NCBI GenBank assembly: GCA_040776805.1
Contig: JAXGZS010000001.1
Coordinates: 413,016 to 477,015 of the forward strand
Length of the DNA stretch: 64,000 bases
Direction: 5' to 3'
Origin: Clostridiales bacterium
GTDB taxonomy: Bacteria; Bacillota; Dehalobacteriia; UBA7702
Shown in pieces: positions 35,270-41,021 of this stretch; position 1 is the stretch's first letter, and each line of letters starts with the position of its first letter. The notes beneath the pieces were generated by a model. That model made no database searches. It was not told where the DNA came from and saw nothing but the letters and a program-made list of their open reading frames with translations. The position numbers and the translations under genes were made by a program.

Positions 35270-35313
35270 CATAGTTTTTTTTGATTCGGAAAAACTATGC
35301 CCGGAGGAAGACG

Positions 35314-35811
35314 ATGTCTGAAGATCTTGAAAAATCAATGAATGAATCATTGAGACAGGCCAAACAAAAAGAATACGCGGAACTCGTGGCGGAAACAAAA
35401 CCAAAAACGCCGGTGCTGAAAAACCTCTGCCGCGCTTTTCTGGTCGGCGGTTTGATCTCCGTGATCGGCCAGATCATCTATGAACTGCTCAAGCTAACGT
35501 CCATAACGGACAAACATTGCGTTACCGTGACGCTGATGATCCTAATCGCCGCCGGGGCGGTCTTGACGGGGCTGGGCCTTTACGATAAGATCGGCAAATT
35601 CGCCGGCGCCGGCTCCATTGTGCCCATCAGCGGTTTTTCCAATTCTATGGTGGCTCCGGCTCTGGAATGGAAAACCGAAGGCTTAATCGCCGGTTTGGCC
35701 GCGAAACTGTTTACCCTGGCCGGCCCTGTGATCGTCTATGGCGTCTGTGTTTCCGTGGCTTTGGGGTTGCTGAAATATTTGTGGTTGTTGTTCACGGGAG
35801 GTTTGCCATGA
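35314..35811 (+). CDS. spoVAC: Stage V sporulation protein AC
   Basis: A SpoVAC/SpoVAEB-family 4-TM protein. The RBS is GGAGGAAG. A GCATA element about 40 nt upstream may be the -35 of a forespore sigma promoter. Confidence 0.85.
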   Translation: MSEDLEKSMNESLRQAKQKEYAELVAETKPKTPVLKNLCRAFLVGGLISVIGQIIYELLKLTSITDKHCVTVTLMILIAAGAVLTGLGLYDKIGKFAGAGSIVPISGFSNSMVAPALEWKTEGLIAGLAAKLFTLAGPVIVYGVCVSVALGLLKYLWLLFTGGLP

Positions 35812-36830
35812 GCTGTCTCGGAAGAAATACGTATCTCTTCGATCAAGGAGTACACATTTTAAGCGGCGCCGCTGTGGTGGGGCCCAAGGAAGGCGAGGGG
35901 CCTTTGGGCCCGTGTTTCGATAAAGTTTGGCCCAAAATTCAGACCGCGGAAAAGTCCTGGGAGGATACGGAAGTCAAAATGCAGAAAGAAGCCGTCGATC
36001 TTGCCCTGGCAAAAGCGGCTTTGGGCGATCATATGATCGACGTTCTGCTGGGCGGTGATCTGATCAACCAGCTCACCATCACCAATTTCGCTGCCAAGGA
36101 GAGGGAAATTCCCTTTCTTGGTTTATATAACGCTTGTGCCACCATGGCGGAGGGCCTTCTTTTGGGAGCATCCCTCATCGGCGGCGGCTTTGCCGCTGAT
36201 GCCGCCGTGGTGGCGTCAAGTCATAACGCTACCAGCGAACGGCAGTACCGTTTTCCTACGGAGCTGGGCACCCAGCGTCCCCAGACCAGTCAATGGACGG
36301 TGACCGGGGCCGGCGCCATGGTCTTATCAAAGCAGCCGTCGCCGCTGCGGATCATCAGCGGCACAGTGGGGAAGATTGTCGATTACGGTGTCAAAGACCC
36401 CAATGAAATGGGGGCCGCCATGGCCCCGGCGGCGGCGGATACGATTTTACAGCATCTGCGAAACAACGATAGAAAAGCCGCGGATTATGATCTGATCTGT
36501 ACCGGCGATCTCGGTTCCCACGGTCACTGTCTCTTGGCAGAACTGCTGAAAAAGGAGCATGTTGTCGTTGAGGAACAGCTCCAGGACAGCGGCATGTGGA
36601 TCTATCAAAAAAAACAGGATAGCCACGCCGGCGGCTCCGGCTGCGGCTGTTCCGCCACGGTTTGGAGCTCCTACCTTCTTGACGCCCTGCACCGCGGCAA
36701 ATACCGGCGTGTTTTATTGGTGGGTACCGGCGCGCTGCTGAGTCCTGTCAGCATCGGTCAGGGCCATGCCATTCCCGCCATTGCCCACGCTGTGGAGATC
36801 GTAAAGGAGGGAAAGACGGTATGTGGATGA
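35808..36830 (+). CDS. spoVAD: Stage V sporulation protein AD
   Basis: ATGA overlap with spoVAC. A thiolase-like fold with the SpoVAD N-terminus MSCLGRNTYLFDQGVHILSGAAVVGPKEGEGPL. Confidence 0.85.
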   Translation: MSCLGRNTYLFDQGVHILSGAAVVGPKEGEGPLGPCFDKVWPKIQTAEKSWEDTEVKMQKEAVDLALAKAALGDHMIDVLLGGDLINQLTITNFAAKEREIPFLGLYNACATMAEGLLLGASLIGGGFAADAAVVASSHNATSERQYRFPTELGTQRPQTSQWTVTGAGAMVLSKQPSPLRIISGTVGKIVDYGVKDPNEMGAAMAPAAADTILQHLRNNDRKAADYDLICTGDLGSHGHCLLAELLKKEHVVVEEQLQDSGMWIYQKKQDSHAGGSGCGCSATVWSSYLLDALHRGKYRRVLLVGTGALLSPVSIGQGHAIPAIAHAVEIVKEGKTVCG

Positions 36831-38122: not shown

Positions 38123-38680
38123 TCAACCGATGAAAAACACGTTGCCTTCTTTGCGCTCCGGCGCTTCCTGGGCAGCTCCTTCCGGGTACCCCAAAGCAAC
38201 GGCAAAGCGGGGAATCTTGTCGGCGGGCAGTTGCAGCAGTGATCGTAAACGGGGCCCTTCTTCACTGTCAAAGGCCGGCAGGAAGGAGGCGATATAGCAG
38301 GAACCGAGGTTCAGACTGTGGGCGGCCAAACAGATGTTTTCCGCGGCGTTGGCGGCGTCGGCAATGCCGAAGGGCACGTCTTCACTGCTGATAAAGATCA
38401 CGGTCGGGGCATGATAGAAATTACAGAAGGGTTTGCCGCCCATCCGCGTTTCCACTCGTTTGATGTAGTCTGTTGGCAGCAATTTGTGGTTGACCGCGGA
38501 AATTTCGGCGATGACACCGCTCTCCCGTACCACGGTAAAATAACAAGACTGGATGTTCATGGCAGTGGGCGCGAATTTCGCCGCGGCGATGATTTGAGCC
38601 AGTTCTTTTTCGTCAATGGGCCGCGGGGAAAAATTGCGGCAGCTTCTTCTCGTAAGCATATTCAAAATAATTTCATTCAT
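38123..38680 (-). CDS. Nitroreductase-family flavoprotein
   Basis: The N-terminus MNEIILNMLTRRSCRNFSPRPI carries the nitroreductase RRSxR motif. The start is ATG 38680 after AGGAAGAGGA. The ORF-track N-terminal extension was rejected. Confidence 0.8.
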   Translation of the reverse strand: MNEIILNMLTRRSCRNFSPRPIDEKELAQIIAAAKFAPTAMNIQSCYFTVVRESGVIAEISAVNHKLLPTDYIKRVETRMGGKPFCNFYHAPTVIFISSEDVPFGIADAANAAENICLAAHSLNLGSCYIASFLPAFDSEEGPRLRSLLQLPADKIPRFAVALGYPEGAAQEAPERKEGNVFFIG

Positions 38681-38846
38681 CTGTCCTCTTCCTTTCCGTA
38701 AAATCATAAATATTATTCTAATGATAACATAAAAAAAGCAAATTGCCAAAGGACTATCGCTATCGCCACCGCAAAGAAGGTTGAAAAATGGCATTACTTG
38801 AGATATAATATTTCATAGGAAGGTGTAAATTAAAAGAGGAGCAGTG

Positions 38847-39497
38847 ATGGATACATTTCAGAAAGAAGTCTATGTGAAATTGATCAACCGCGCGATTGGG
38901 GAAAAAGGCGTCACGCATTTTGCGAAAAAAGCGTCGTTGAGCGCAGGCAATCTTTCCCGGATCAGAAAAGGGCAGCTGGCCACCGTGGAAACGTTGAAAA
39001 AAATCGCCGCCGCCGCCGAAGGCGTGTCTTTTGCGGAATTGATGGATGCCGCGGGCTACACGGAGTCGGTGTTTTTAAAAGCCGCCGATCCCATGGCTGT
39101 GCCCACCACCAGCAAGGTGATCAGTATTCCCGTGGTGGAAGCGCTTCATGGCACGAAGAAAGAAATCAAGCAGGATGATTCATTGAAAAAGGAATATTAT
39201 TATGCCGACGCTTTCGGCAGCGGCGAGTTTATCTTTTTTGTCGTTAACGACGATGCCTTTGCGCCCAAAGTCAACCGCGGTGATAAGGTTTTGATCGATA
39301 TGGCGAAAAAACCGAGGGAAGGGGAGATCGCCCTGTTTTTGCTGAACGGGGAAGAAACCATGCTCCGCCATTTGACCCGACAAGGCAAAAAATACTACTA
39401 TTATGGGAACGACCTCGGTAAATATCCCATGACGGAAGCGAATAGCGCGGATATTAAAATATTCGGCACCGCGGTTCGCGCTTTTGTCACCATGTAA
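38847..39497 (+). CDS. XRE-family HTH regulator with a C-terminal LexA/S24 peptidase-like domain in which both catalytic-dyad residues appear substituted
   Basis: An N-terminal HTH is followed by a segment that aligns to the LexA C-domain (GDKVLID, EGEIALF). At the Ser/Lys dyad positions this protein reads NDDAF and TMLRHL instead of GDSM and TVKRL. Confidence 0.7.
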   Translation: MDTFQKEVYVKLINRAIGEKGVTHFAKKASLSAGNLSRIRKGQLATVETLKKIAAAAEGVSFAELMDAAGYTESVFLKAADPMAVPTTSKVISIPVVEALHGTKKEIKQDDSLKKEYYYADAFGSGEFIFFVVNDDAFAPKVNRGDKVLIDMAKKPREGEIALFLLNGEETMLRHLTRQGKKYYYYGNDLGKYPMTEANSADIKIFGTAVRAFVTM

Positions 39498-39545
39498 GCT
39501 TAGGGGCGGATCTGCGCCGCGGCGGGGAACAAGCAAATAAAAACC

Positions 39546-39578
39546 GGGGCATCCCCATGGGGACGCCCCGTATTTTTT
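39546..39578 (+). terminator. Rho-independent terminator (GGGGCATCCCCA/TGGGGACGCCCC followed by T6)
   Basis: Read directly from the sequence. Confidence 0.6.
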
Positions 39579-39668
39579 CGCGCAAGAGCAAGGAACGCCC
39601 CATTGCGGAAAGATTGATCCTCGCCGGCTTTTGCCGGTACTTTATTTTATGCGCCGATCTCTTTTTTG

Positions 39669-39800
39669 TTAACAACATCCGCATCTTCCGCAACCACAGC
39701 CGCCGCCGCAGCAACAGACGCTGCGGCAACCGCAACCGCAGCCGCAGCCGCATCTGCAAAAACACGGTCCCCAGAAGGGCCAGAAAAAGAAAGGAAACAT
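39669..39800 (-). CDS. Candidate 43-aa micro-protein MFPFFFWPFWGPCFCRCGCGCGCGCRSVCCCGGGCGCGRCGCC (20 Cys)
   Basis: ATG at 39800 is preceded by GAGGTG with a 5-nt spacer. The frame is open to TAA at 39669-39671. It has an aromatic hydrophobic N-terminus and a Cys/Gly-rich body encoded by a (GCN)n repeat. It is below the ORF-track length cutoff. The codon-by-codon translation is given in findings. Confidence 0.4.
   Translation of the reverse strand: MFPFFFWPFWGPCFCRCGCGCGCGCRSVCCCGGGCGCGRCGCC
39682..39752. repeat. GC-rich trinucleotide (GCN)n simple-sequence tract
   Basis: GCCGCCGCCGCAGCAACAGACGCTGCGGCAACCGCAACCGCAGCCGCAGCCGCATCTGC. Confidence 0.6.
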
Positions 39801-39909
39801 GGTTTCACCTCATTTCAATCTCGTCTTTCTTTATTTTATGAGGGCCTTTCCCCATTGGTGCGGACATATTTGAAAAGAGCGCCCCGTACAATGAAGCGAG
39901 GTGTTTTTT

Positions 39910-40494
39910 ATGATCAATCCGATCTGGTTGTTCCTGCTTTGCGGCGGGATCTTAGCGGCGGTGGTGACCGGCGATACCGCTGTCGTTTTTCCTTCGGTTG
40001 TGGAAGGCGCAACCTCTGCCATAGAAGTCATCATCGGTTTGGCGGCGTTCCTTTCGATTTGGTGCGGCATCATGCGCTTGGCGGAAAAATCGGGGCTTCT
40101 TGACCGCGTTTCCCGTATGGTTTATCCTGTGATCCGGCCGCTTTTTCCCTCTTTGGGAAAAGGGCATAAAGCCTGGGCGCCGATGGTCATGAATATTTCC
40201 GCCAATTTGCTGGGCCTCGGCAACGCGGCGACGCCCTTCGGCATTCAGGCCATGAAAGAACTGGCCGCTACCAGCGAGGAAAAGGGTGCGGCCTCCAAGG
40301 AGATGATCGTCTTTTTGGCCTTAAATACGTCCGCCGTCAGTTTTGTTCCAGGCATGGTTTTGGGCTTTCGTTCCGAAGCGGGGTCGCTGAATCCCGCGGA
40401 AATCATTGTGCCGTCGTTTCTTGCCTCTCTCGCCGGTCTCTGCGCGGCTTTGATCGCCGCGTCTCTTTTTGCGCGGACGAGGAAAAAACAGTGA
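39910..40494 (+). CDS. spmA: Spore maturation protein A (nucleoside-recognition-domain membrane protein)
   Basis: MINPIWLFLLCGGILAAVVTGD... matches SpmA. ATG 39910 follows GAGGTG by 7 nt; the ORF track starts at an upstream GTG. Confidence 0.8.
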   Translation: MINPIWLFLLCGGILAAVVTGDTAVVFPSVVEGATSAIEVIIGLAAFLSIWCGIMRLAEKSGLLDRVSRMVYPVIRPLFPSLGKGHKAWAPMVMNISANLLGLGNAATPFGIQAMKELAATSEEKGAASKEMIVFLALNTSAVSFVPGMVLGFRSEAGSLNPAEIIVPSFLASLAGLCAALIAASLFARTRKKQ

Positions 40495-41021
40495 TTGCTC
40501 ACCTCGTGTCCTTTTCGGATTGGATCATTCCCTGTATCCTCCTGTTTGTTCCGCTTTTCGCGTATTATAAAGGCATTTCCGTTTACGATGAATTCATCGA
40601 AGGGTCCAGAGAAGGGTTGCTGCTCACCTGGAATCTGCTGCCTTTTCTCATCGCTATGCTCTCGGCCATCGCCATCTTCACCAATGGCGGCGGTATGGAC
40701 TTGCTGCAAAAGCTACTGTCGCCCTTCTGTGTCAGGCTGGGGATTCCTGGCGATGTGGTGCCTTTGGCTTTGATGCGGCCCCTTTCCGGCAGCGGTTCCC
40801 TGGGTCTCACCGCCAGCATCATCAGTGAACACGGCCCCGATTCTTTTGTGGGCCGTCTCGCTTCCATCATGCAGGGCAGCACGGAAACGACATTTTACGT
40901 CCTGACCGTCTATTTTGGCGCTGTGGGCGTCAAAAAATTCCGCTACGCCCTCTGGGTAGGCTTAATCGGCGACGCCGTGGCGTTTTTAACGGCTTTTTAC
41001 CTCACAAAAGCGTTTTTTTAG
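40491..41021 (+). CDS. spmB: Spore maturation protein B
   Basis: A GTG start overlaps the spmA stop (GTGA). A 176-aa SpmB-like membrane protein. The RBS is GAGGAAAAAACA. Confidence 0.75.
   Translation: MIAHLVSFSDWIIPCILLFVPLFAYYKGISVYDEFIEGSREGLLLTWNLLPFLIAMLSAIAIFTNGGGMDLLQKLLSPFCVRLGIPGDVVPLALMRPLSGSGSLGLTASIISEHGPDSFVGRLASIMQGSTETTFYVLTVYFGAVGVKKFRYALWVGLIGDAVAFLTAFYLTKAFF

Follow-up and report, generated by a model that had tools for sequence, protein, structure and literature searches.

A conserved cysteine-rich microprotein gene divergent from spmA in uncultured Clostridia, a candidate late component of the spore

Introduction

Little is known about the spore coats of anaerobic gut Clostridia, in which few of the Bacillus coat proteins have been conserved. 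The cysteine-rich proteins CotY/CotZ of B. subtilis, ExsY of B. anthracis and CdeC/CdeM of C. difficile build the crust or the exosporium, presumably via disulfide cross-linking (PMC6101409). The C. difficile sigma-K regulon includes CD1067 (CdeC) and CD1581 (CdeM) (PMC3789822), and SscA (YhzE), a microprotein of 28 amino acids (aa) in B. subtilis, takes part in coat assembly (PMC13417171). Here we describe a 43-aa cysteine-rich microprotein encoded next to the spore maturation genes spmA and spmB (spmAB) in a 64,000-nucleotide stretch of DNA from a Clostridiales bacterium (GenBank assembly GCA_040776805.1, contig JAXGZS010000001.1, positions 413,016 to 477,015), hereafter called the window. 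The gene is coding, conserved and linked to spmAB, and it carries a conserved sigma-K-type promoter motif.

The microprotein shares with the crust and exosporium proteins a high cysteine content, a lineage-restricted distribution and fast evolution. However, CotY/CotZ, ExsY and CdeC/CdeM are 160–405 aa long, contain about 9% Cys and have defined repeats or domains (PMC6101409), whereas the microprotein and its relatives have 33–62 aa and 21–36% Cys. Late expression in the mother cell goes with membership of the sigma-K regulon for CdeC/CdeM, and with a sigma-K-type motif only for the microprotein. The searches below detected no sequence similarity between the two groups, and we infer, by analogy, an outermost-layer location for the microprotein. 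Because these precedents contain about 9% Cys and are not homologous, we treat the microprotein as a new family that would work alike and not as a member of theirs.

Results

A cysteine-dense reading frame divergent from spmA

The open reading frame (ORF) and its parts are the following.

39669-39800, minus strand: microprotein coding sequence, stop included (ATG 39798-39800, TAA 39669-39671; 43 aa)
39806-39811, minus strand: Shine-Dalgarno (SD) sequence GAGGTG, 5 bases before the microprotein ATG
within 39669-39800, minus strand: N-terminal aromatic/proline motif, residues 1-11, MFPFFFWPFWG, conserved
within 39669-39800, minus strand: variable CxC/CC-rich tail, residues 13-43, encoded by an imperfect GCN repeat

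Re-translation of the ORF reproduced exactly the peptide given in a preliminary description of this DNA, MFPFFFWPFWGPCFCRCGCGCGCGCRSVCCCGGGCGCGRCGCC, together with its coordinates and the GAGGTG sequence 5 nucleotides (nt) before the ATG. That description had counted 20 cysteines among the 43 residues, but the recount gives 15 (35%); 11 residues are Gly. No other ORF with at least 20% Cys occurs in the 64-kb window. The frame crosses an imperfect tandem repeat of the GCN type, which Tandem Repeats Finder (TRF) placed at 39688-39752 with 6-, 12- and 18-base periods. The tail of the peptide is made of CxC, CC and CCC runs, and its head is an 11-residue hydrophobic stretch of Phe, Trp and Pro, with three prolines among the first 12 residues. 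This N-terminus had been proposed to be a hydrophobic anchor. It is indeed hydrophobic but, judged from its sequence, has too few residues and too much proline to span a membrane as a helix, and it looks more like an interfacial or protein-binding anchor.

The reading frame is conserved in relatives

Loci surrounding SpmA relatives were fetched from species-representative genomes and from the assemblies that carry twelve further SpmA homologues (eleven from the clade and one outgroup). The protein search delineates a distinct SpmA clade at 64–93% identity, beyond which identity falls to 50% or less. The closest relative of the window is the metagenome-assembled genome (MAG) 'Peptococcaceae bacterium UBA7702'. 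The same ORF was found divergent from spmA in L001, L019, L023, L002, L024, L003, L025, L027, L028, L031, L032 and L033, in genomes whose SpmA is 66–97% identical to that of the window. With the window, these 12 loci make 13 and yield 12 distinct peptides of 33–62 aa containing 21–36% Cys. Some variant of the motif MF(P/F)(F/P)F(F/L)WPF(W/F)G opens every one of them, with F2, W7 and P8 invariant in the alignment of the 12 members (alignment A1), and the tail is hypervariable. A GAGGTG or GGAGGT sequence lies 5–7 bases before the ATG at all 13 loci; in L032 the SD spacing fits the second Met, which restores an MFPF start. The search of related genomes proposed in the preliminary description thus finds the reading frame, and not merely the repeat, conserved in 12 further loci. 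SpmA outgroup loci (32–49% identity) hold no analogous Cys-dense ORF. The family, of which the window peptide is the founding member, appears restricted to one clade of uncultured Clostridia.

The window, L001 and L019, whose SpmA proteins are about 97% identical, form a close trio with alleles of 43, 45 and 47 codons that differ by in-frame insertions or deletions of 6 and 12 bases.

39688-39752 in the window, 3754-3891 in L001 and 3290-3433 in L019: repeat-length alleles, gain or loss of Cys-Gly/Cys-Arg dipeptides

These alleles suggest slippage-driven variation in tail length, and all the repeat-length changes seen are in frame. Of the 13 variable sites in the trio, twelve are third codon positions and the remaining one is an AGA/CGA change that is synonymous, so that pairwise differences in the sense frame amount to 22 synonymous versus 2 non-synonymous. 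The Ala-rich frame of the plus strand scores nearly as well in the trio (21:4), because the two frames share the wobble position. The N-terminal motif sits outside the repeat and therefore separates the sense from the antisense frame: over codons 1–9 in five lineages, 30 synonymous and 8 non-synonymous differences were counted in the sense frame, versus 18:18 in the antisense frame.

Frame disruptions, indels that are not multiples of 3 and loss of the ATG or ribosome binding site (RBS) in relatives, any of which the preliminary description would have taken as evidence against a gene, were not encountered at these loci. The repeat artefact that it had considered as an alternative is set aside by the conservation of the frame, by the retained ATG and SD sequence, and by the ratios of 30:8 and 18:18. 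We consider it highly probable that the microprotein is the product of a real protein-coding gene.

A conserved sigma-K-type promoter motif

A promoter search upstream of the ORF, also suggested previously, strengthened the link to sporulation by revealing a conserved motif, which adds to the constant divergent linkage with spmAB.

39832-39859, minus strand: sigma-K-type promoter, with the -35 box AC at 39858-39859, a 17-base spacer and the -10 box CATAAAATA at 39832-39840; sequence ACcaatggggaaaggccctCATAAAATA

The -10 box ends 31 bases upstream of the microprotein ATG. The pattern AC-N17-CATANNNTA has a single match on both strands of the window, where 0.69 would be expected by chance. Boxes of the AC and CATAnnnTA types, separated by exactly 17 bases, are present at 11 of the 13 loci, and the remaining two have CATAnnnTG; the spacer sequences between the boxes have almost fully diverged. 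The combination of AC and CATA is the sigma-K consensus of B. subtilis. In C. difficile, too, sigma-K promoters associate an AC -35 box with a -10 box of the CATA type (PMC3789822). We read the motif as the phylogenetic footprint of a late mother-cell promoter, presumably dependent on sigma-K, and regard late expression of the microprotein in the mother cell as probable.

A second box, GCGGACATATT, was noticed on the plus strand at 39860-39870, about 40 bases upstream of the spmA start, and is conserved in most loci of the clade. It abuts the AC of the microprotein -35 box on the opposite strand, and no matching -35 box could be assigned to it. It is likely a -10 box of the CATA type for spmAB, recognized by a mother-cell sigma factor, in which case the promoters of spmA and of the microprotein would stand back to back.

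Composition of the family and database searches

Across the 12 family sequences, the main residues are C (28.5%), G (21.9%), F (12.9%), P (7.8%), W (7.0%), R (7.0%) and N (5.1%), and D, E, K, A and T do not occur at all. The tails, which vary greatly in sequence and length, are built almost exclusively of Cys, Gly, Arg, Asn, Ser and Trp, and their Cys columns are unconserved across the 12 members, except for a few near the repeat. This points to selection of the tail for bulk thiol density and not for fixed Cys positions. A tryptic peptide predicted from the ORF is (M)FPFFFWPFWGPCFCR.

No Pfam family matched the peptide at E values up to 10, metallothioneins and PF12669 included, and no NCBIfam family, TIGR01732 included, did so at E values up to 1, in a scan where the composition filters of HMMER may hide weak matches. 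In a word-indexed search of 5.8 billion clusters, neither the single peptide nor the alignment of 12 sequences had a match, and an exhaustive phmmer search of 1.84 billion representatives gave 0 matches. The PDB sequence search produced a chance match only (E 8.9). An exact look-up of the peptides of the window, L001, L019, L002 and L003 found none of them in a collection of 15 billion proteins. Scanning metagenome DNA with the back-translated motif PF(F/L)FWPFWG gave 3 matches, all of them chance occurrences lacking both an ATG and a Cys tail.

The likenesses previously seen to metallothioneins and to known spore-coat families thus find no counterpart among the Pfam and NCBIfam models. A third likeness was to FeoB-associated Cys-rich proteins (PF12669), which are also small Firmicutes proteins with a hydrophobic N-terminus and a Cys-rich C-terminus. 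These are encoded downstream of feoB or fused to it and show the spacing Cx3-5Cx2-3Cx6-8C (PMC8749426), whereas the microprotein has CxC/CC. No feoB gene is found beside the microprotein in the window or in the related loci. We rejected this identity on the lack of a PF12669 match and of a feoB neighbour, and on the different spacing of the cysteines.

At L028 (NCBI assembly GCA_036652275.1), the gene listed at 698-856 on the minus strand starts with TTG and encodes an Ala/Val-rich product of 52 aa in the wrong frame; the Cys-frame ORF at 702-890, with its own SD sequence and ATG, goes unlisted. At the other loci the gene is simply uncalled. The annotation blind spot for the microprotein looks systematic. 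From these searches the family appears to be new and previously unannotated, although late spore components rich in Cys, and sporulation microproteins, are known kinds of protein.

Gene neighbourhood and elements flanking the gene

The genes surrounding the microprotein in the window are listed below.

39910-40494, plus strand: spmA, with a Pfam Gate domain; homologues are named 'spore maturation protein A'
40491-41021, plus strand: spmB, with a Pfam Gate domain
38844-39497, plus strand: LexA-like regulator with an N-terminal helix-turn-helix and a C-terminal peptidase S24 domain
38123-38794, minus strand: nitroreductase-family gene, with best scores against NfsA/TM1586-type models
35281-36830: spoVAC and spoVAD, identified with Pfam

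Pfam domains and coordinates bear out the neighbours reported earlier, with spmAB divergent and spoVA nearby. The start of spmA is 109 bases from the microprotein ATG on the opposite strand, and the two genes have this control region in common. To the right, the order spmA-spmB-rluB-FAH-family hydrolase is found at most loci of the clade; L026, L027 and L033 differ beyond spmB. To the left, spoVA, the nitroreductase and the S24-family regulator are found in the window, in L003 and also in L001, and their place is taken by pfkA-purA-hxlR in L002, a metallophosphatase in L024, an arginase in L027 and transfer RNA (tRNA) genes in L028. Since the left side varies among loci, spmAB is the only stable partner of the microprotein gene.

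The S24 regulator and the nitroreductase lie between the spoVA operon and the microprotein. Both genes are present in L001 and L003, an S24-type gene was also noted in L019, L023, L025 and L029-L032, and both are absent from L002, L024, L027 and L028. The S24 gene of L029 and L030 is called up to about 80–100 bases from spmA, and in L026 rluB is inverted with respect to spmA.

Two further elements follow the microprotein stop codon.

39535-39570, minus strand: intrinsic terminator, CGGGGCGTCCCCATGGGGATGCCCCG then GTTTTTATTT
39616-39669, minus strand: post-stop conserved element, AC-N16-CATAAAATA (39643-39651), hairpin CCGGCAAAAGCCGG (39624-39637) and cGAGGATC (39616-39623)

The terminator, at 39545-39570, is bidirectional, with an 11-bp GC-rich stem and T-runs on both sides, and lies between the microprotein and the convergent gene for the S24 regulator. 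The microprotein transcript probably ends at this terminator, which serves the S24-family regulator gene as well. The post-stop element, which in the window consists of the box sequence CGCATAnnATAnAnT followed by the hairpin and GAGGAT(C), is single-copy there. The arrangement of AC-N16/17-CATAnnATA, 5–6 bases, a hairpin and GAGGAT(C) recurs in L001, L019, L023, L003, L027 and L033, with hairpin stems that differ in sequence among lineages, and the element stays with the microprotein gene where the left neighbour differs. Neither the region nor eight related loci gave a relevant match in Rfam, and this element had none; no conserved second small ORF was found behind the downstream GAGGAT box. 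The element may be part of the 3' untranslated region (3'UTR), or it may supply a short mother-cell RNA, ending at 39545-39570, with its promoter and 5' hairpin.

Discussion

The reading that we favour, with a probability of about 0.4, is that of a late mother-cell Cys/Gly-rich microprotein deposited on the spore, whose thiol-rich tail becomes cross-linked or binds metal. Late in sporulation, the sigma-K RNA polymerase of the mother cell would transcribe the gene from AC-N17-CATAAAATA. The peptide, having no signal sequence, would be synthesized in the mother-cell cytoplasm and deposited on the developing spore, where the Phe/Trp/Pro head would bind it to a hydrophobic surface provided by the outer forespore membrane or by coat proteins. 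Thiols, present at very high density in the CxC/CC tail, would form intermolecular disulfide cross-links once the spore meets oxidants, resulting in a cement of the keratin-associated-protein type. Oxidant scavenging or metal binding could be a secondary role of the tail. The gene is very probably sporulation-specific; a role at the spore surface, structural or thiol-based, is a more tentative assignment. We infer the dependence on sigma-K, the location at the spore surface and the cross-linking chemistry.

Several observations weigh against this reading. Sigma-E and sigma-K promoters have the CATA -10 box in common, so the footprint is not proof of sigma-K dependence, and the promoter call itself rests on a short consensus. 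Searches of families, clusters and representatives gave no sequence homology to known coat or exosporium proteins. The single-sequence AlphaFold model, with a pLDDT of 50, shows no confident fold and is unusable. Disulfides in a strict anaerobe would have to await release into an oxidising environment. A conserved head followed by a hypervariable Cys-rich tail would also fit the precursor of a modified peptide. Finally, no microprotein ORF was found beside spmA in L026, L029 and L030 (SpmA 69–73% identical), where the gene has been lost or moved; these loci keep spmAB without an adjacent microprotein, which means that the gene is not essential to spmAB function.

The alternative that survives best, although we think it unlikely, keeps the same gene and expression and makes the tail a spore metallothionein-like ligand of Zn, Cu or Fe, or a sacrificial thiol pool acting as redox buffer, instead of a cross-linker. 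The dense CxC, CC and CCC motifs, the His residues beside Cys runs in L003 (CCCHNQCCCHRCC) and L027 (SHHCCC), and the lack of acidic residues and of a folded core would all suit such a protein. Other coat proteins of the C. difficile sigma-K regulon are oxidant-detoxifying enzymes (PMC3789822). However, no family model matches even at E values up to 10, the metallothionein models of Pfam included, and the ligands of metallothionein clusters are fixed whereas the cysteines of the microprotein drift between lineages. The Trp/Gly-rich stretch of L002 and the large variation in tail length likewise argue for bulk composition and not for a defined metal site.

Two other readings are improbable. According to the first, the gene would encode the precursor of a ribosomally synthesized and post-translationally modified peptide (RiPP), with the 11-residue head as the recognition or leader part and the Cys/Gly tail as a core that carries modifications such as thiazoles or thioether bridges, introduced by enzymes encoded elsewhere. 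Alignment A1 displays the classic pattern of a conserved N-terminus and a hypervariable Cys-rich C-terminus. Gly-Cys repeats are substrates of azole-forming systems such as those of microcin B17 and heterocycloanthracin-type peptides, and would suit them here, and in the window a gene of the nitroreductase family is found at a distance of 1 kb. This nitroreductase nevertheless scores best against NfsA/TM1586-type models and is unlinked to the small gene in L002, L024, L027 and L028. No YcaO, radical-SAM, lanthionine synthetase, peptidase or exporter gene is present within about 5 kb, and none is conserved in relatives. An 11-residue leader would be unusually short, and a bacteriocin would not be expected to have a promoter of the sporulation type.

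According to the second, the microprotein would be an accessory micro-subunit of SpmA/SpmB, its aromatic head lying in or on the membrane, and would modulate spore core dehydration or cortex maturation. The only linkage conserved in the clade is the divergent position next to spmA, with some 110 bases of control region in common, and the CATA-type box for spmA at 39860-39870 of the plus strand is conserved beside the -35 box of the small gene. Yet the small gene is missing from this site in three members of the clade that keep spmAB, such a neighbour is not found beside SpmAB homologues from outside the clade, and the head appears too short and too rich in proline for a transmembrane helix.

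That the ORF is not a gene, being a by-product of a GC-rich triplet repeat or masking a real product in another frame or on the other strand, is very improbable. It is true that several frames of a GCN repeat are open. On the plus strand, the Ala-rich frame is open at all loci and rivals the Cys frame in the close trio (21:4 against 22:2), a public annotation of L028 called the Ala/Val-rich frame, and the peptides of the window, L001, L019, L002 and L003 are absent from the 15-billion-protein collection. Conserved ATG, SD sequence and promoter are found only for the Cys frame, however, and only in the sense frame is the N-terminal motif under purifying selection (30:8 against 18:18); the other frames lack a start that is consistent among loci, and they continue across the RBS and the beginning of spmA. 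Two such frames were rejected for want of a conserved start and on their substitution pattern. One is the plus-strand Ala-rich ORF 39666-40103, for which the TTG start, the lack of an RBS and the out-of-frame overlap with spmA given in the preliminary description were found again. The other is the minus-strand Ala/Val frame 39647-39808.

Attenuation leaders specific for an amino acid are rich in one codon, and the 15 Cys codons out of 43 recall them, but a Cys-codon-rich upstream ORF that senses cysteinyl-tRNA to control a downstream gene is effectively refuted by gene order, since no gene follows in the same direction, the one that comes next being convergent and separated by a bidirectional terminator, and since the downstream neighbours vary among loci. 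A type I toxin was also discarded (no transmembrane helix, no antisense partner).

To our knowledge, the microprotein is among the most cysteine-dense bacterial peptides. That a conserved gene has been skipped or mis-framed by annotation shows low-complexity microproteins to be a blind spot of spore biology. If the microprotein is a coat cement, or a thiol or metal buffer, it bears on how oxygen-sensitive gut bacteria produce transmissible, oxidant-tolerant spores, and the alleles of 43, 45 and 47 aa in near-identical strains suggest rapid tuning of a surface property.

Among very small sporulation proteins, YjcZ (TIGR01732) is a tiny Gly-rich hydrophobic protein of Firmicutes that annotation can easily miss. 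YjcZ proteins have a central aliphatic transmembrane stretch, whereas the microprotein has none. SscA, compared here by its description, is also a sporulation microprotein of about 3 kDa, hydrophobic and present in the coat, where it affects the assembly of coat proteins; it differs in belonging to the Bacillus lineage and is not described as a CxC-repeat protein (PMC13417171). Like SscA, the microprotein could serve as a very small anchor for spore display. In composition, it comes close to metallothioneins and to the ultra-high-sulfur keratin-associated proteins of mammals (such as the KRTAP5 family), which combine extreme Cys/Gly contents with CxC/CGGC-type repeats and have no stable fold without metal or disulfide partners. 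The resemblance lies in this composition and in bulk thiol chemistry; sequence and origin are unrelated. More speculatively than for the spore-surface role itself, the microprotein could be the first of a hidden class of sigma-K-driven ultra-Cys spore microproteins (up to 36% Cys). In-frame expansion and contraction of its repeat-encoded thiol tail between strains would then adjust the cross-linking of the spore surface, its tolerance of oxidants or its load of metal in gut Clostridia that are strict anaerobes, possibly in functional partnership with SpmAB. In that case, a structural component of clostridial spores is systematically missed by standard gene callers, one that would be a bacterial counterpart of keratin-associated proteins or metallothioneins.

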